From Candidatus Magasanikiibacteriota bacterium (GTDB taxonomy: Bacteria > Patescibacteriota > Patescibacteriia > Magasanikbacterales > GWA2-37-8): a stretch of 64,000 nucleotides of DNA. The notes beneath the pieces were generated by a model. That model was not told the DNA's origin. It saw nothing but the letters and a program-made list of their open reading frames with translations, and did no database searches. Each line of letters opens with the position of its first letter. The stretch's first letter is position 1. A program made the translations under genes and the position numbers. The stretch spans positions 17,045 through 81,044 of the forward strand of contig CALRGC010000001.1 of NCBI GenBank assembly GCA_943357105.1. The letters run 5' to 3'. Shown here one piece after another: positions 3,951 to 46,300 of the stretch.

Positions 3951-5052
3951 AGTCTAGATTATTCTGGAATTGAGAAAACTGTTCGGTTACAAAATTTTTT
4001 ATTTCGTTTTTGAAACGGTCGGTAGAAAAATTTTGCGCGTGCGCGCGAATTTTGGCGCTGTCAAATGCGCTTGAGTCAAAATTCAGCAGTGTATGTAGTA
4101 GTGATTCCCAAGTTTGTTGTTCAAAAAATACTCCAGTTTCATTAGGCAAAACTGTTTCGGTAGCACCTCCCTGACTGTAAGCAATTACGGGGCGGCCAGC
4201 GGCCATGGCTTCGAGCGGAGTGATGCCAAAATCTTCTTTTTGGGGATGGATAAAGGCAATCGCTTCACTGAGAAGCTGAGCTTTTTCATCTTCGGAAATT
4301 TTTCCGTAAAATTCAATATTGGCCTTGGCGATTTTTTTCAGATAAGGATATTCTGATCCGATACCAAAAATTTTTAGCGGCCAACCCAGACGATTGAAAA
4401 CTTTTATTACTAAATCCAGGCGTTTGTATGGCACGAGGCGCCCACCGGCCACATAATAATTTCCTACTTTGGCCGCGGTTTGAAATCTATCGGTATCAAC
4501 CGGCGGAAAAATGACTTGACTGTCACGGCGATAATATTTATTGATGCGACGTTTTACCGTATTGGAATTGGCAATAAAATTATCTACGCGTTTAGTACTG
4601 AGTTGATCCCACAAACGCAAGCGATGAGTCAAAATTGGTAAGAAAATTTTTACCAGCCGATTATTTTTGAGATCCGACAGATAATTATTGCCGTCACCCC
4701 ACAAAAAACGCGGCGGGGTGTGACAATAGGCGATATGCAGAGTGTCGGTGGAGGTGATTATGCCCTTGGCAAACCCGGACGAAGAAGAAATAACCAGATC
4801 ATAGCCCTGGAGTTGGTGACGCTCGGTGGCTACAGGCATCAGTGGCAAATACCACTGGAAGATTTGATTGACAAAAGGCAAGCGATTGAGAAAAGAAGTA
4901 TGAATTTTATCCTGATCCAAATAATTTATTTTGTTGGCATCGTGAAATAAAACAAAAATTGGCGCGTCCGGCCAAATTTCGTGTAAGGCTTTGAGCACTC
5001 TCTCCGCCCCTCCATCTTGAGACAGATAGTCGTGAACTAGGGCGACCTTCAT
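3949..5052 (-). CDS. glycosyltransferase family 4
   Basis: 367 aa; N-terminal MKVALVHDYL; GT4-like; TGA stop at 3949-3951 overlaps the repeat IR. Confidence 0.75.
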   Translation of the reverse strand: MKVALVHDYLSQDGGAERVLKALHEIWPDAPIFVLFHDANKINYLDQDKIHTSFLNRLPFVNQIFQWYLPLMPVATERHQLQGYDLVISSSSGFAKGIITSTDTLHIAYCHTPPRFLWGDGNNYLSDLKNNRLVKIFLPILTHRLRLWDQLSTKRVDNFIANSNTVKRRINKYYRRDSQVIFPPVDTDRFQTAAKVGNYYVAGGRLVPYKRLDLVIKVFNRLGWPLKIFGIGSEYPYLKKIAKANIEFYGKISEDEKAQLLSEAIAFIHPQKEDFGITPLEAMAAGRPVIAYSQGGATETVLPNETGVFFEQQTWESLLHTLLNFDSSAFDSAKIRAHAQNFSTDRFKNEIKNFVTEQFSQFQNNLD

Positions 5053-6470
5053 ATGATGGATCCGGTTTTGCGCAAAACAATAAAAGGAGTTTTAATTAAA
5101 ATTACCAGATCGGTAAATAGGCTCCAATGTTCAATATAGAAAATATCCAGGCGCGCTTCTTCGTCAAAGCTCAGATTGCTACGTCCGGAAATCTGAGTAA
5201 TACCGGTGATGCCCGGTTTGATAGCCAGCACGGTTTTGTGCCATTTCTCATATTTGTTTACTTCGCGTTCCTGGTGAGGGCGCGGACCAACCAAACTCAT
5301 TTCACCCTTTAAAACATTATAAAATTGCGGAATTTCATCAATGCTCAATACACGAATAAAACGACCAAATGGGGTAATGCGCGGATCATTTTTTATTTTA
5401 TAAACCGGTCCTTTTTTTTCACTTTTTTCTTCAATTAATTTTTTTTCCAGTTTCAGCGCCTCTTGTCCGTTTTTACCAAACTGTTCGCCGGTGCAATATT
5501 TTTGGTACATTGAACGGAATTTGAGGGTAAGAAATTTTTTGCCTTCTTGCCCCACGCGTTCATTTTTATAAATAATCGGCGTTCCGGTTTCGAGCAAAAT
5601 TATTAACGAAGTAATCAAAAATATTGGCAGAAAAATTATCATTAAAAATAGACTGCCGACAATATCCACGGTGCGTTTGAGTATGCGACCCCAGCCACCC
5701 AGGCGGGTGCGACGCAATTCAATAATTGGAATGCCGGCAATCGTGGATACGGCCATATTGGAAGAAACGGTAGCGAAAAGGTCGGCCGAATATTTGAAAG
5801 TGATGTGGTGCTCGTTGGCAAAATCTATGGCTTGCAGAGCTTCATCTTCGTGACTCTTGGGATCGGTAAAAATAATTTCATCAATACCGGTTTTTTTCAA
5901 AGTTTTTAGTTGGTTTAAATTAAAATTAGGAATCTGTCCAATAATTTTATAACCAAAATGGGAATGTGAATCTAAAGTATTCAAAATTTGTTCTTCTATT
6001 TGGCCACTACCAATAATCACGGTGCGGCGCAGACCAAGCCCCAGGCGATAGCAGAGAATTTTTAGCAGTCGCCAAGCGATTCTGCCGGCATAAACATAGA
6101 TAATGGCAAAAATCCAACTAGCTAAAACCAAAAAGCGTGAATCAAATTTTTGGAAAGTAAAAAAGACATAAATTGTAATCGCGGCAAACCCAGTAGCACA
6201 GGCAAAAAAGACGCGATTGAGTTCGCTGGTGAGTTTGCGATTGGGATTGGCGCTGTATAACCCGGAAAAAGCGAAGATAACTATCCAGCCGCCCGCGACT
6301 ATAAGTGCCAATGGCCAATATTTTTCCCAAGGTAAATTAAAAATCACCGGACGAATGGCCGTAGTGATCTTGGCAAAACGCAAACTATAGGCCGTAAAGG
6401 CGGCCAATATCAGCATGAGATAATCTAGAGGTAGCTGTAAAAAAGTAAATGTAAGTTCAAAGCGTTTCAT
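5049..6470 (-). CDS. undecaprenyl-phosphate sugar phosphotransferase (WbaP/bacterial sugar transferase family)
   Basis: 473 aa; N-terminal TM helices; C-terminal sugar-transferase domain (LSIDEIPQFYNVLKGEMSLVGPRP); 4-nt overlap with the downstream GT gene. Confidence 0.8.
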   Translation of the reverse strand: MKRFELTFTFLQLPLDYLMLILAAFTAYSLRFAKITTAIRPVIFNLPWEKYWPLALIVAGGWIVIFAFSGLYSANPNRKLTSELNRVFFACATGFAAITIYVFFTFQKFDSRFLVLASWIFAIIYVYAGRIAWRLLKILCYRLGLGLRRTVIIGSGQIEEQILNTLDSHSHFGYKIIGQIPNFNLNQLKTLKKTGIDEIIFTDPKSHEDEALQAIDFANEHHITFKYSADLFATVSSNMAVSTIAGIPIIELRRTRLGGWGRILKRTVDIVGSLFLMIIFLPIFLITSLIILLETGTPIIYKNERVGQEGKKFLTLKFRSMYQKYCTGEQFGKNGQEALKLEKKLIEEKSEKKGPVYKIKNDPRITPFGRFIRVLSIDEIPQFYNVLKGEMSLVGPRPHQEREVNKYEKWHKTVLAIKPGITGITQISGRSNLSFDEEARLDIFYIEHWSLFTDLVILIKTPFIVLRKTGSII

Positions 6471-6529
6471 GCTCTATATTTTAAGGCAAAATGCCAATAT
6501 AGTCAATTTATTGACAAAAGTCGCATTTC

Positions 6530-6892
6530 GTGCAGAAGCTCGTCGGGGAGGCCATCCCCGCCGAAATGACCGTCGGCGGCGTCACCTATGAGATCCTCTC
6601 CTTCCACGAGGAAGGTGAAAACTCGGTCGGCGGCGGTGTCATGGTCGAGCGTTCCAAGACGCTCAACGCCCACCAGGGCAAAAAGGAGCGGGAACACCTT
6701 CTGGCCAACCAGGCCGACATTCCGGTGGCCTGCCGCGGCAGGACGGCTTTCGTCTTCACCGACGAAAGGCATCCTGACGTTCCCGACGAGGGCGTCTACT
6801 ATGTCTGCTGGCGCGACGGCCGCTGGGTCGAGGGCTGGGACTGGCTCGACGAAGACTGGGGTCGCGGCGACCGGGTGCTCCGTCGCAAGTAG
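6530..6892 (+). CDS. hypothetical protein encoded in a high-GC (~63%) island, probably foreign or a gene fragment
   Basis: GTG start; strong GC3 codon bias unlike its neighbours; antisense ORFs on the other strand are GC artefacts. Confidence 0.4.
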   Translation: MQKLVGEAIPAEMTVGGVTYEILSFHEEGENSVGGGVMVERSKTLNAHQGKKEREHLLANQADIPVACRGRTAFVFTDERHPDVPDEGVYYVCWRDGRWVEGWDWLDEDWGRGDRVLRRK

Positions 6893-7091
6893 CCCTAGGA
6901 TTCTGGGCACCTTGGTCCTCAAGGTCGCTTGGATCATCCTTCGGTTCACTTTGGTAATTGGCCCACATCAGTACGATCCTTCGGGATACGACTGGTGTGG
7001 GCGCTTCGTTTTTATGCTGGTTATGGTCTTAAAATAGGTTGACAAAAACACTTTTTGGATGTATGATAATAATATATAATTAGAAATAATT

Positions 7092-7328
7092 ATGCAAAAA
7101 AATAATTTACAATTTTCAGTTGTTTATCAACAAGATCTCGACGGTGGTTTTATTGCTACTGTTCCCGCTTTGCCTGGTTGCCATACTCAAGGAAAAGATT
7201 TATCTCAGACTACTTTTAGAATAAAAGAAGCGATAGATTTGTATTTGGAAAGTTTTAAATCTGAAAAATCTATTCGTCAGGCCGCACAAAAACAAATTTT
7301 ATTTGGAACGGTAATGATAGGTGGTTAG
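7092..7328 (+). CDS. hicB: HicB-family antitoxin
   Basis: 78 aa; HicB/UPF0150 N-terminal domain (FIATVPALPGCHTQGKDLSQ). Confidence 0.7.
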   Translation: MQKNNLQFSVVYQQDLDGGFIATVPALPGCHTQGKDLSQTTFRIKEAIDLYLESFKSEKSIRQAAQKQILFGTVMIGG

Positions 7329-7566
7329 TATGGTTAGCTTTAGTCAATTACCAAATCTAAAAGCAAAACAATTAGTGCGTGTTTTGGAAAAGATAGGTTT
7401 TGTGGTGGTCAGGCAAAAAGGCAGTCACGTTATTTTGGTTAATGAAAAAAGTAAACTGCGTACCGTTGTACCAGTGCACACAGGAGAAACAATTAGAAAA
7501 TCATTGTTGATGGAAATTATAAAACAAGTAAATTTAACGGTAGAGAATTTTTTGGAGTTGTTATAA
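7321..7566 (+). CDS. hicA: HicA-family mRNA interferase toxin
   Basis: 81 aa; KGSHVIL...VPVHTGETI motif; 8-nt overlap with hicB. Confidence 0.7.
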   Translation: MVSMVSFSQLPNLKAKQLVRVLEKIGFVVVRQKGSHVILVNEKSKLRTVVPVHTGETIRKSLLMEIIKQVNLTVENFLELL

Positions 7567-14100: not shown

Positions 14101-14481
14101 TTACTGATCCAACTGATCGCAACTCACCGTGATCAAACGGTGTTGGTCGAATTGAGTCCCGCCGCTGAGATCGTAGTTGAGGCTGAGTTGGTTGAGGATC
14201 ACGAGGTGCTCTCTTGGTCCCTGAGAAAAAACCGTTTCACCGGCTTGCTTGGTGCATGGGGAGAAGAAGCGCCCAGGCGTCCCATTGATATTGGGACAGG
14301 ATTGCTCCAAGATCGTATGTTGAGCGGTGACGCCTTTGGCGATACCGATCGCATTGATATCACGGAGCTTCAGACCAGCAGTTTCGCACCGTCGTACCAA
14401 TTCGCTTTCGGTGATGCACTCCAGAGCCAGTTTGTTCAGATCTGCCTTGTTCATTGTTTCCTTGTCGTCCGTTTTGCCCAC
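14101..14481 (-). CDS. hypothetical protein in a GC-elevated (~50%) segment; strand and start uncertain
   Basis: 126-aa ORF with GTG start; internal ATG has an AAGGA RBS; an overlapping plus-strand ORF 14140-14541 is equally possible. Confidence 0.3.
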   Translation of the reverse strand: MGKTDDKETMNKADLNKLALECITESELVRRCETAGLKLRDINAIGIAKGVTAQHTILEQSCPNINGTPGRFFSPCTKQAGETVFSQGPREHLVILNQLSLNYDLSGGTQFDQHRLITVSCDQLDQ

Positions 14482-14609
14482 GGAACCGGGGAAAGAGCGT
14501 TGCTGAAATTAGGCCTCAGCCGACTGTCTACTCTAAAATAGATAATCGGTTAGTGTCTAACTTATGGCAGATAATATCTTCTATTTTTATGTTTGTCAAC
14601 CCTGTTCGT

Positions 14610-15182
14610 TTATTCTTTTTTTAGCGAGATTTTTTTAATAAATTTTTTAGTTTGTTTTGTTATTCTAATAGTGTATTTATCCGCATTTTTTGTTTTTATT
14701 TTATACAAATTAGCCTTAAAATTTAACCGAGCGATCATTTTTAAAACTTCATCGGCTAATTTCGGTATTATTGTTACAAAATTTACCATTATATATCCTC
14801 GATCGGAATAAATGGATCCGTCGGTTTCTATTAGTCCGCGCAGACATTCAATAGAAAATTTTTTATTATTCAATATCCATTTTGGTATTTTAATATTTTG
14901 TTTATGTTTCGGCCCATTATTTGCTTTCCAGCCAAGCAATTTTTCCCATTGATTGGAATAACAGCTGATATCGCAACAATTTTGTTTTCTGGTGACTATA
15001 GAAATTTTATTTTTAGACATTATTTCTCGTATAACTTCAATAATCCTTTGTCGCAATTTAGGATATTTATTATCACAAGTAATCCGTAGTCGTACGGCGC
15101 GTCCGTTGGGATTAGAAAGATTACCGTCGCCAATGGCGAGGCCTATTAGATAAGCTAGTTTACCCCTCCTAGTTTGAAGCAT
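14610..15182 (-). CDS. LAGLIDADG-family homing endonuclease (two motifs), free-standing, starting 3 nt after tRNA-Leu
   Basis: Motifs LIGLAIGDGNL and LRGLIETDGSI; the annotated ORF extension to 15242 overlaps the tRNA, so the internal ATG at 15182 was chosen. Confidence 0.7.
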   Translation of the reverse strand: MLQTRRGKLAYLIGLAIGDGNLSNPNGRAVRLRITCDNKYPKLRQRIIEVIREIMSKNKISIVTRKQNCCDISCYSNQWEKLLGWKANNGPKHKQNIKIPKWILNNKKFSIECLRGLIETDGSIYSDRGYIMVNFVTIIPKLADEVLKMIARLNFKANLYKIKTKNADKYTIRITKQTKKFIKKISLKKE

Positions 15183-15185
15183 ATT

Positions 15186-15270
15186 TGGTGCCGATGGTGG
15201 GACTTGAACCCACAAACCCGAAGGCACATGATTTTGAGTCATGCATGTTTACCAATTTCATCACATCGGC
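15186..15270 (-). tRNA. tRNA-Leu (anticodon CAA), long variable arm, CCA encoded
   Basis: Cloverleaf: acceptor GCCGATG/CATCGGC; anticodon loop CTCAAAA; T-loop GGTTCAAGTCC. Confidence 0.8.
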
Positions 15271-18349: not shown

Positions 18350-19288
18350 TCAAAACAAATCGCTGATTGAATCGCCGTCGTGGGTACGGCGAACGGCCTT
18401 GGCGAAGAGGCCGGCGACCGACACGACCTCGAGCTTGTCACTCACCTTCCCTTTCAAGGGGATGGTGTCGCTGACGAGCACCCGCTCGATGATGCTCTGG
18501 TTGATGCGGTCGATGGCCGGTCCAGAGAGGACCCCGTGGGTGGCCACGACCCGGACCGACAAGGCCCCGCGGTCCATGACGAACTTGGCGGCTTCCACGA
18601 TGGTCCCGCCCGTAGCAATTTCGTCATCCACGATGATCGCGTGCAGGCCACTGACATCCCCGATGAGGTTGGTGGCCGTCGCCTTGTCGTCGTCGCCGTA
18701 GCGGCGTTTGTCCACGACCGCGACTGGAAGTTGCAGACGATTGGCGAATTTGCCAATGTCCTTTGTTTCTCCCACATCGCCGGCGACCAGCACACAACCT
18801 TCCAGCTTCCACTGCTTCTTCATGTACTCGCAGAGCGTCGGCGCTCCCACCAGGTGATCGGTCGGGATGCGGAAGAAACCCTGGATCTGCGGGGAATGCA
18901 AGTCCATCATCATCACTCGATTGGCGCCAGCTGTATGCAGGAGATCGGCCATCAGGCGCGCCGTGATCGAGATCCGGGGCTTGTCCTTCTTGTCGGAGCG
19001 AGCATAGAAGTAGTAGGGCATGACGACCGTGATCCGATTCGCCGACGCGTGTTTGAGGGCGTCGACAGCGATGAGCATTTCCACAATGCCGTCGCTGACC
19101 GGAGGGGCCATGGTCTGGATGTAGAAGACATCACAGCCGCGGACATTTTCGCCGATCTGGACCATCAGATTCTCGTTGCTGAAGCGCACCGTCTTGCTCG
19201 GAGTGAGCTTGAGATCCAGATGACCGCAGATGTTCTCAGCGAAATGGGTGTGGCTGCTACCGGAGATGACGCGAATGTTGCCGTTCAT
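18350..19288 (-). CDS. prs: ribose-phosphate pyrophosphokinase (PRPP synthetase) at ~60% GC, atypical for this genome
   Basis: 312 aa full-length Prs; strong GC3 bias; TGA stop; overlapping antisense ORFs are GC artefacts. Confidence 0.9.
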   Translation of the reverse strand: MNGNIRVISGSSHTHFAENICGHLDLKLTPSKTVRFSNENLMVQIGENVRGCDVFYIQTMAPPVSDGIVEMLIAVDALKHASANRITVVMPYYFYARSDKKDKPRISITARLMADLLHTAGANRVMMMDLHSPQIQGFFRIPTDHLVGAPTLCEYMKKQWKLEGCVLVAGDVGETKDIGKFANRLQLPVAVVDKRRYGDDDKATATNLIGDVSGLHAIIVDDEIATGGTIVEAAKFVMDRGALSVRVVATHGVLSGPAIDRINQSIIERVLVSDTIPLKGKVSDKLEVVSVAGLFAKAVRRTHDGDSISDLF

Positions 19289-21900: not shown

Positions 21901-22071
21901 TGGCCAAGACCCGCGAGTTCGACCGCATCCCGTTCGCCGAGATCACCAAGAAGTTCCGGCAGGACAAGCTGAACGCCAATACGGCTTCTAGCCGTCCGAC
22001 CAAGCGTCGCCGCGAGAACCGGACCCAGGTCCAGTTCGTGCGGCCTGTCCGTCGCCGCAAGCAGTCGTAGG
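21901..22071 (+). CDS. small basic protein (56 aa) in a ~62% GC island with an AGGAG RBS
   Basis: MAKTREFDRIPFAEITKKFRQDKLNANTASSRPTKRRRENRTQVQFVRPVRRRKQS; GC3-biased; not in the ORF track (<60 aa). Confidence 0.4.
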
Positions 22072-22194
22072 CGGGCCTCTCCGCCGCTGTTCCTTGCGGG
22101 CAACCGCAGCAGGGCGTTGCGGTTCTCCTCCAGACCGTTCGCCTTCGCTATCTGCAAACAAATTTTGTTTTCAGATAGCGCGAACGATCTCTTA

Positions 22195-43800: not shown

Positions 43801-44304
43801 GGCATTATTGATAGTGTAAAGAAAAAAATTACTCGTAGTGGCTCACCGATGAGTTTTGTGACGATTCAGGACACCACTGATCGTCTGGAGCTCTTGGTAT
43901 TTCCGAAAGTTTATGAAAAAACCAAAGAAATTTGGGCTGAAGGTAAGATGGTCGTAGTAGTTGGTAAAACTTCCCAAGAAGAAGGGGATAATAAATTATT
44001 TGTAGAGAAGGCTTATGCTTTGACTCTCGAGAACGCGGCTCAACTAGCTTCGCAATTGGGCGATGGAAAGAAAAATTCTATTCGCCAGTATGTGTCTCCA
44101 GAATTGTCGGAAAAGACCTTTGAAATCAGCATTACCGCCGATTATCTCAAAGCAAAAGCTGATGATATCAAAGCTTTGTTGGCTTCGGTCCCGGGAGATG
44201 AGGCCGTATATTTGGTAGTAGGGCAGAAAAAAATAAAAACTTCTTATAAAATAAAAACTTCTCCTGAGTTTCAAGAGAAGTTAAGGATTATTTTAGACAG
44301 TTAA
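40843..44304 (+). CDS. dnaE: DNA polymerase III alpha subunit
   Basis: 1153 aa; PHP domain (HLHVHSHYSLLEG); pol III alpha core; OB fold. Confidence 0.95.
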   Translation: MKDFVHLHVHSHYSLLEGLPKVADLVKAAKKRGFSALALTDHGNMYGAIEFYQECEKNGIKPIIGTEVYVAAKSHLDKDEHENYSRLILLAIDNVGYHNLITLTSIAQTAGFHLKPRVDKESLKKYHSGIVALSGGFDGEIAIALRKENNLDKAKKLALEYRDIFGEDNFYLELMDLPAREGQTELNSSLIELGQETDVPLVVTRDVHYLDLDDAEAQDVLTCIRDGKNVEDVNRYSMVGVDYSLCDGDDIASRFSHIKIALENTAKIAARANIKLELNKWHFPHIDLPVGKNADQYLSDLVYERLTKLIEINDAVRERVEYELGIIATKGYSPYFIVVADYVNYARDNGIVETTRGSGAGSIVAYAMGITTVNPLFFKLPFERFLNPYRPSAPDIDADFADDRRDEMIAYVTKKYGADKVAQIITFGTMAARGAIRDVGRALGYSYSFCDQVSKMIPIGAQGFQMTLDKALNLEKDLMELYKKNPQVQRLIDLAKKIEGCARHTSMHAAGVVISPTPLTDFTPVQYETGGDKITTQYEMHAVEAAGLLKMDFLGIRNLSILGRAVEIVEKTTGKKIDIFQIPWDDQKTYDMLSRGETNSVFQLAGSGITRYLKELKPSSIFDITAMVALFRPGPMEQIPEYIRRKHHPEMVDYLDPRMKEYLDQSLGLIVYQDDVLLTSIHLAGYNWEEADKFRKAMGKKIPEEMAKQKEKFVKGCREFGKLPEAKIHLLWEMIEPFAAYGFNKAHAASYGVVAYQTAYLKANFPVQYMTAVLIAESGDMDKVPEIIRECERMGVKVLPPDINESLKTFAMIGWENGGNAHIRFGLSGIKNLGEHIAEAIYRERKDNGRYFDLTDFLQRVQHKDLNKKSLESLIKCGALDCFGFDRGVLLANTENLLYFSKNFGEQKRTSQNSLFAGTGIDFSSKLHLNKAPNATQDEVLIWEKELLGLYVTAHPFAPLAAQLSACLTDIKDLGSYSRNEWIVVGGIIDSVKKKITRSGSPMSFVTIQDTTDRLELLVFPKVYEKTKEIWAEGKMVVVVGKTSQEEGDNKLFVEKAYALTLENAAQLASQLGDGKKNSIRQYVSPELSEKTFEISITADYLKAKADDIKALLASVPGDEAVYLVVGQKKIKTSYKIKTSPEFQEKLRIILDS

Positions 44305-45903: not shown

Positions 45904-46295
45904 GCGTTTACAGTGGATGATCGTCCCTGACCTAGTCAGGGGAGGAAAGTCCGAACACTTTCTTTGAAAAAAGAAAAAAGGCAGTGGGTAACACCCACCG
46001 GTTTGGCGGCAACGTCAAACAAGGGAAAGCGGCACAGAGACAATACTATCCCAGAGCAATTTGGGAGAAAGGTGAAAAGAATATGGAAGTTCTGACTCTA
46101 GAACAGAGCTACCATATACCGACCGTTGTGAGACGGTCTGGTGCCAAGCCCTGCCTGGGTGCAAGAGCAGCCTATGAGAGAGACATAGGAAAAGTTCGCT
46201 CGCTTGATTTTGGCAGTAATGCCAAAACTAGATAAATGATCGTCACGTCTTGCTAAACACAAGACGTACAGAATTCGGCTTATAACTGTAAACTC
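45904..46295 (+). ncRNA. rnpB: RNase P RNA (bacterial type)
   Basis: P4 halves gaggaaagtccgaac and acagaattcggcttat; P1 pairing gtttacagt/actgtaaac; gggtaacaccc element; terminator follows. Confidence 0.8.
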
Positions 46296-46300
46296 ATCAA

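Follow-up and report, generated by a model that had tools for sequence, protein, structure and literature searches.

A GC-rich island between a sugar transferase gene and hicBA in a Patescibacteria genome is probably a truncated orphan copy of a diversity-generating retroelement target unit

Diversity-generating retroelements (DGRs) act through a reverse transcriptase (RT), which copies the RNA of a template repeat (TR) into cDNA with misincorporation at adenines; this cDNA then takes the place of the variable region (VR) of a target gene. This replacement rewrites the ligand-binding face of a lectin-like domain. DGRs of Patescibacteria/CPR are reportedly also the subject of a study by Paul and colleagues (2017). 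Among the described systems, the closest is a Patescibacteria-restricted DGR lineage (“DGR clade 2”), which has small targets without recognisable domains (Roux et al, 2021; PMC8144416), and a CPR set together with “UVR” classes has been defined as well (Wu et al, 2018; PMC5758913). Remote targets are likewise acknowledged in the literature (PMC8144416). In the Bordetella phage element, efficient homing requires a GC-rich inverted repeat located just past the constant end of the VR (PMC3240598; summarised in PMC5758913).

The protein family reported here shares several properties with the Patescibacteria/CPR lineage, namely the host group, small proteins without recognisable domains, a C-terminal VR, and, in relatives of the window copy, the target–TR–RT order and adenine-specific TR/VR mismatches. 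The copy in the analyzed genome differs from that lineage in being 5'-truncated and in having no TR or RT within 84 kb. The structurally characterized DGR proteins Mtd of Bordetella phage (1yu0) and TvpA of Treponema denticola (2y3c) have no detectable sequence similarity to the family, whose domain, at about 110 aa, is much smaller.

The window, by which we mean the whole analyzed stretch of 64,000 nucleotides, has a mean GC content of 0.416, with a standard deviation of 0.08 between 100-bp windows. Within it, the island between the sugar transferase gene and hicBA (Table 1) reaches 0.605 over 6520–7038 and 0.609 over 6525–7030, and among 128 non-overlapping 500-bp windows just one, 18501–19000 in the prs gene, exceeds it. 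A previous sequence-only reading had put the GC content of 6525–7030 at about 63%; the jump is real, the measured figure lower. Its placement of the island between these two flanking loci, its description of a GTG-start open reading frame (ORF) with biased third codon positions, and the ttcg hairpin that it saw downstream all hold. We consider the island to be, with a probability of about 0.88, a 519-bp, 5'-truncated orphan copy of a Patescibacteria DGR target-gene unit.

Table 1. Features of the GC-rich island and its flanks, in window coordinates.
Feature	Position	Strand	Remarks
Bac_transf sugar transferase	5049–6470	−	
Left copy of the 9-bp direct repeat TTGACAAAA	6511–6519	+	−35-like host promoter sequence abutting the insert
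Inserted GC-rich segment	6520–7038	+	519 bp; probable 5'-truncated fragment of a DGR target-gene transcription unit
GTG-start ORF	6530–6892	+	120 aa; 65% GC; GC by codon position 0.69/0.42/0.835
Variable region (VR)	6767–6889	+	Stretch rewritten by the TR in intact relatives
GC-rich constant VR end ACCGGGTGCTCCGTCGCAAG	6870–6889	+	Encodes RVLRRK; IMH position
Imperfect inverted repeat	6893–6944	+	8-nt units ending CTNGG; starts directly after the stop codon
Terminator-like TTCG-loop hairpin	Stem 6961–7002; T run 7009–7013	+	42 nt; predicted fold
Right copy of TTGACAAAA	7039–7047	+	−35 box of the hicBA promoter (7039–7067)
HicB	7092–7328		Pair with HicA (7321–7566)

The composition changes sharply at both edges of the island, as would be expected if reads of a high-GC organism had been joined to this genome during assembly. 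However, an identical island with both junctions is present in the independently built Logan assembly of run ERR5863125 (1394 nt, 100% identity), and it recurs on the ENA contig k141_34775 (437,183 bp, containing the window in reverse at record positions 44022–108021) and on one further ENA contig of 10–20 kb. Because both junctions are identical on three contigs, an assembly chimera is very unlikely, to the point of being negligible; in addition, islands of this kind are present in relatives across many genomes. The right edge of the insert is blurred and falls between 7016 and 7038.

Periodicity of GC content over codon positions supports the frame of the GTG-start ORF and is not seen for the overlapping ORFs at 6503–6949 (−) and 6588–7037 (+). 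The public gene call that spans the island (ENA ERZ27280322, k141_34775) is an antisense ORF of 144 aa at window positions 6503–6937 (−), and the DGR-target ORF on the plus strand was called in the Logan assembly only. The antisense call is almost certainly a mis-annotation, likely caused by the high GC content.

A first protein search with the window ORF returned eight relatives. One of them is identical, and the other seven (P0002–P0008) are 153–169 aa long, carry about 33 further N-terminal residues, and are 50–67% identical to the window ORF, with the upper value reached by the 153-aa P0002. A profile search yielded 297 family matches, all named “hypothetical” and none with a Pfam domain or name; the exhaustive version of this search gave 1272 clusters at E ≤ 1e-3, including 150 at E ≤ 1e-30. 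Sequence searches of Pfam, NCBIfam, and PDB with the window ORF and full-length relatives produced no match.

Scanning of one genome per species (185,579 species) located 24 family loci, in which the gene has 55–70% GC (GC3 0.64–0.99) versus 33–53% in the remaining locus. The informatively named bins among them are assigned to Magasanikbacteria, Falkowbacteria, Parcubacteria, Paceibacter/Paceibacteria, or the “Patescibacteria group”. The remaining bins come from third parties and are titled “uncultured Gammaproteobacteria” (L009, L013, L014, L016, L017, L020, L021, L023, L026, L027, L029, and L031); their context is equally low in GC, and the labels are probably placeholders or errors. In seven metagenomic loci, the gene again forms an island of 60–68% GC (GC3 0.80–0.94) within surroundings of 38–52% GC, and the neighbouring genes differ from contig to contig. 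None of the 24 genome loci and seven metagenome loci places a family member in a high-GC genome. The family of approximately 153-aa proteins is large, unannotated, and restricted to Patescibacteria. A phage origin is unlikely, as only one locus was found in 2.9 million viral contigs.

Several variations of the basic architecture were observed. Tandem fusions of two to four units occur (P0242 with 517 aa, P0243, P0244, P0009–P0012, and P0301), and P0301, a protein of 1703 aa, contains 25 matches to the VR-proximal segment. Target genes are duplicated in tandem in L022 (5440–6360) and in L025. Short forms that consist of the lectin-like domain alone (108–125 aa) are frequent across the wider family, and L016 encodes one that is equipped with a promoter, a ribosome-binding site, and an ATG of its own.

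The function of the family can be read from eight loci that contain a TR/VR pair. In these loci, an adenine-rich second copy of the last ~122 nt of the gene, the TR, lies about 480 bp downstream and is followed by a reverse transcriptase ORF. Mismatches of the VR fall at TR adenines in 19/22 cases in L002, 13/16 in L006, 20/21 in L012, 15/16 in L018, 12/13 in L020, 15/15 in L021, 18/18 in L022, and 22/37 in L028. The translated TR is rich in Asn (...RHPDNPENVYYVYWNDDRWVxNWNWLDNDWNxNYRVLRRQ), which fits a TR built from AAC codons, and the ORFs after the TR match RVT_1 (E 1e-23 to 1e-27), with no named RT family above its cut-off. Because adenine-specific TR/VR mismatches combined with a downstream RT are the defining signature of DGRs, the family is the variable (target) protein of a DGR; the “unknown function” given to the ORF by the sequence-only reading can be replaced by this assignment. 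The part of the DGR mechanism seen here is the footprint of TR/VR mismatches at adenines alone. Targets of the family can be remote or in tandem: two tandem targets in L022 match a single template, and the VR of L027 is a remote target of the TR of L021, which lies on another contig of the same genome (17/18 mismatches at A). Explanations of the island as an integron cassette or attC site, as a MITE or IS element, or as a structured RNA gene were dropped given the TR/VR pairs and RT genes.

The intact unit has the order GC-rich leader, ~153-aa gene, post-stop inverted repeat, terminator, promoter with a ~100-nt RNA element, TR, and RT. The conserved element of about 100 nt between target terminator and TR (GGATAGTAAACGAAACAGTCCACGG...GGGCGGTTGAACTCTGGATAC) is preceded by a −10 box of its own (TGGTATACT or TATAAT). 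The element, which probably forms the 5' domain of the RNA carrying the DGR template, lies within 2640–2900 in L002, within 740–1000 in L006, and within 6450–6715 in L012, with equivalents in L017, L018, L021, and L022. Rfam returned zero matches at gathering thresholds for the window and ten related loci, and searches by E-value gave only tRNAs and a chance Xoo5 match at E 0.059; no described RNA family thus corresponds to the leader, to the 3' hairpin, or to the element preceding the TR. Otherwise, the window contains ordinary housekeeping RNAs: five tRNA genes and a bacterial class A RNase P RNA at 45905–46298 (+; 174 bits). An ORF of 210 aa with LAGLIDADG-like motifs (LAIGDGNL, ETDGSI) lies at 14610–15270 (−), starting inside or right after the tRNA-Leu(CAA) gene (15186–15270), and is followed by a stretch of 51–55% GC without a clear gene (14101–14541); this ORF possibly encodes a homing endonuclease or belongs to an intron-related element by the tRNA gene.

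Measured against the intact unit, the window copy lacks its 5' part. Nucleotide homology to L007, L006, and L002, the closest full-length relatives, starts at ~6521–6527 and extends past the stop codon across the whole 3' UTR and terminator, with 76.5% identity to L007 over 460 nt. The missing part comprises the conserved GC-rich leader of ~90 nt and ~100 nt of coding sequence, that is, about 33 N-terminal codons, and it coincides with the abrupt start of the ORF that had been remarked on before. The GTG start of the window ORF corresponds to an internal Ala/Val/Cys codon of full-length relatives. In the remaining ORF, which is intact, all invariant residues are preserved.

The window VR was compared with TRs from other genomes. 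Relative to the TR of L006, in which A makes up 25% of positions, 17 of the 27 mismatches are at TR adenines, and these sit at positions of AAC codons; the other 10 are between-genome divergence. With foreign TRs generally, 16–20 mismatches are at A and 10–26 at other bases. By this measure, taken against foreign TRs, the window VR bears an apparent footprint of adenine mutagenesis. It also contains a 3-nt insertion, an extra Asp codon, which is seen in none of the other 75 aligned members. The VR closes with the GC-rich constant end at the position of the initiation-of-mutagenic-homing (IMH) site. The RVLRRK encoded there is invariant in the family alignment, and in relatives the TR/VR homology stops at ...CGTCGC(A/C)AGT.

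No TR or RT for the window copy was found within 84 kb, which comprise the window and 10 kb past either end; for the RT, a tblastn search with the RT of L012 covered the window and its 20 kb of extensions. A cognate DGR may be encoded in the other ~353 kb of the contig or elsewhere in the genome. The VR is identical on all three contigs with the island, and no ongoing diversification was seen among them. The DGR status of the window copy is thus argued from two lines, homology to demonstrated DGR targets (P0002–P0008) and the putative footprint against foreign TRs.

For the closest full-length relative, an AlphaFold model from 76 sequences (mean pLDDT 93) consists of three N-terminal helices (residues 3–41) and a compact alpha/beta domain (residues 45–153). 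The best fold matches were domains of invasin and of animal lectins rather than DGR proteins; Foldseek returned matches of the same kinds, though weak ones, with none at E ≤ 0.001. With these modest scores, the predicted domain is consistent with a C-type-lectin-like fold whose last ~40 codons form the variable region, as in DGR biology. The window ORF aligns to profile positions 36–153, so that in the model helices 1 and 2 and most of helix 3 are gone, whereas the lectin-like domain is whole, with the VR at the C-terminal end of the predicted fold.

Downstream of the stop codon, the window copy retains two predicted structures (Table 1), and its 3' tail folds better than 200 of 200 shuffled sequences (z = −4.55). 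All relatives have a terminator-like hairpin with a T run 60–110 nt after the stop codon. The region in between consists of repeated 8-nt units, each with CTTGG, CTCGG, or CTGGG at its end; in 27 sequences of 75 nt, CTTGG occurs 47 times against three expected (z = 24.6), most commonly at a spacing of 8 nt. Units of this type occupy both arms of one long imperfect hairpin, which starts a few bases from the stop codon and whose G–C blocks are broken by small U–U or U–C internal loops. Single-sequence folding predicts a post-stop hairpin in 22/22 3' UTRs (mean z = −2.7). RNAalifold gave no consensus for an automatic alignment of the 3' UTRs, because the length of the hairpin varies. The central stem varies while its pairing is kept, with ACCTTG/CAAGGT in the window, AACTCG/CGAGTT in L006, ACCTCG/CGAGGT in L029, and CGTAC/GTACG in L013; stem sequences thus covary between genomes. 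In the literature searched, the 8-nt periodicity of CTTGG in the post-stop repeat is not mentioned.

In the window copy, the GC-rich constant VR end is followed by an inverted repeat, as is the constant VR end of the Bordetella phage element. By analogy of position, the post-stop hairpin is likely the counterpart of the Bordetella phage repeat, and the repeat at 6893–6944 is a candidate hairpin or cruciform for target recognition.

The sequences next to the island suggest how it may have arisen. It is bordered by two copies of the 9-bp repeat TTGACAAAA. The right copy opens a strong hicBA promoter-like site (TTGACA, 17 nt, TATGAT) that matches at 11/12 positions, and just left of the insert the minus strand carries a promoter-like site for the sugar transferase. 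If 6520–7047 were excised, a compact stretch of ~93 bp carrying divergent promoters would be restored; the island thus has the look of an insertion by which the −35 box was duplicated. An empty site or alternative allele, searched for in JGI metagenomes with the hicBA-proximal 29-mer, gave 0 matches.

One way to produce such a structure would be reverse transcription of a target transcript, by the RT of a DGR or another one, followed by ectopic insertion with a target-site duplication. Such a retro-copy would account for the 5' truncation with a 3' end that is intact through the terminator, and for a 9-bp direct repeat placed exactly at both composition boundaries. Nevertheless, we regard it as improbable. 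The insert runs ~25 nt past the T run of the terminator, and this stretch weakly resembles post-terminator DNA of relatives, which favours a DNA fragment over a retro-copied transcript. The repeat is a common promoter motif, present seven times in the window against two expected, and the flanking pair is not significant alone (p ~0.14 by shuffling). At 20 of 21 other family copies tested, no significant flanking repeat was found. We infer instead that the fragment would have entered as DNA, by illegitimate or microhomology-mediated recombination, and would have landed among the closely spaced divergent promoters that separate the sugar transferase gene from hicBA. It would have lost the leader and about 33 initial codons and retained the lectin-like domain, VR, constant end, inverted repeat, and terminator.

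The TTGACA upstream of the ORF (6511–6516) is native host sequence, in line with the sequence-only reading, which had called the AT-rich upstream region native-looking. The further proposal that the fragment was placed under this region was not supported in the sense of a promoter: the TTGACA is the duplicated −35 box of hicBA, no −10 box follows at the right spacing, and no plus-strand promoter uses the left copy. In addition, no ribosome-binding site was recognised before the GTG at 6530. Together, these observations make expression of the truncated ORF, which has no recognisable promoter, appear doubtful.

It is possible, if less than an even chance, that the window copy is a working remote target, in which case a DGR elsewhere would rewrite its VR in trans and a 120-aa protein consisting of the lectin-like domain would be made. 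Separation of a target copy from TR and RT is common to remote DGR targets and is proven within the family by L027 and L021. All cis elements that a target is known or suspected to need, namely VR, GC-rich constant end, inverted repeat, and terminator, are still present in the window copy; its ORF is intact, and the natural short forms of 108–125 aa mean that a 120-aa product could work if expressed. Yet neither a promoter nor a ribosome-binding site was recognised, the VR has the same sequence on all three island contigs, and its 3-nt insertion is absent from the other 75 aligned members. The copy also differs from known remote targets in that no cognate TR, and no RT, lies within 84 kb and that no variation is seen across three contigs, and it may be a dead fragment. 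On balance, we slightly favour a silent relic over a working remote target as the reading of the orphan copy.

The unusual composition of the island is a property of the family. Averaged over 23 loci, GC content climbs from ~0.39 to above 0.5 about 80 nt upstream of the start codon, amounts to 0.56–0.70 through the gene and to ~0.55 for 90 nt past the stop codon, and then falls to ~0.4; the high-GC stretch is essentially the transcription unit. RT genes in the same cassettes have a host-like GC content of 0.37–0.46, compared with 0.59–0.67 for the targets, and family members are all GC-rich while being only 41–67% identical to each other. High GC is a trait of the family and not the mark of a high-GC donor, because all members examined are GC-rich in low-GC genomes and the adjacent RTs are host-like.

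The sequence-only reading had taken the island for a fragment of a high-GC organism's gene, which would have been transferred recently into this AT-rich genome. Its third codon positions do resemble those of a gene from a genome of ~60–65% GC, and their profile is close to the one in the prs island, for which the nearest named relatives belong to the Myxococcota/Deltaproteobacteria. However, clear homologs occur in related low-GC genomes, with the 24 genome and seven metagenome loci all in contexts of 33–53% GC and the named ones all Patescibacteria. The divergence between its uniformly GC-rich members means that the trait is old and maintained, and the RT genes next to them are host-like in composition. 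A recent high-GC donor is therefore highly improbable. A donor shared with the other GC-rich islands, which the same reading had raised, fares no better: the prs island has no sequence similarity to the DGR island, and its relatives are Myxococcota/Deltaproteobacteria-like.

The prs gene (ribose-phosphate pyrophosphokinase; 18350–19288, −) is an island of 59% GC with a GC3 of 0.80, and its nearest named homologues, in Myxococcota/Deltaproteobacteria, are 63–71% identical. In a related genome (L039, 4001–4990), a prs gene of 79% identity, likewise next to tsaD, again forms an island of 60–61% GC in surroundings of 31–45% GC. This gene looks like an old transfer without drift to host composition, and evidently GC-rich genes persist in the lineage without such drift. 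A third GC-rich islet (60%) at 21902–22072 (+) encodes a very basic ORF of 56 aa (MAKTREFDRIPFAEITKKFRQDKLN...RRRKQS) with AGGAG ahead, and an apparently structured GC-rich stretch follows it to ~22160. The ORF list gives only an antisense ORF of 116 aa there, and the islet has no similarity to the DGR island.

Third positions of the family comprise 5% A, 11% T, 31% G, and 52% C, and those of the window ORF 6% A, 11% T, 28% G, and 55% C; the prs island has nearly the same profile there. Avoidance of adenine was rejected as the cause of the bias, as T is depleted too and prs shows this profile as well. The composition might stem from GC-biased conversion between paralogues, from selection for the RNA or DNA structure of the unit, or from slow amelioration of an old acquisition. 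We offer, with little confidence, the more specific proposal that the GC excess of about 20 points, which covers leader, coding sequence, and 3' repeat and spares the RT, is selected for or mechanistically imposed on Patescibacteria DGR targets. The excess could come about through GC-biased conversion, shield the scaffold against adenine mutagenesis, or meet a structural requirement of the periodic CUUGG hairpin in target recognition. A GC excess of the target unit over RT and host is not mentioned in the literature searched, which included PMC8144416 and PMC5758913. If the proposal is true, orphan or remote DGR targets would be findable from composition alone, and stray fragments such as the window island would record the movement of target units.

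Taken together, the analysis resolves an unknown GC island to an identifiable object and corrects its gene call. The family of at least 1272 clusters of “hypothetical” proteins can now be placed functionally, as DGR variable proteins with a predicted compact lectin-like fold. In practical terms, this genome poses the question of whether rewriting in trans can still reach a truncated target; for the family, the findings raise the questions of why the target unit is GC-rich but the RT gene is not, and of what role the 8-nt-periodic CTTGG hairpin plays. More generally, a GC anomaly in a Patescibacteria genome need not signal DNA from a high-GC donor.
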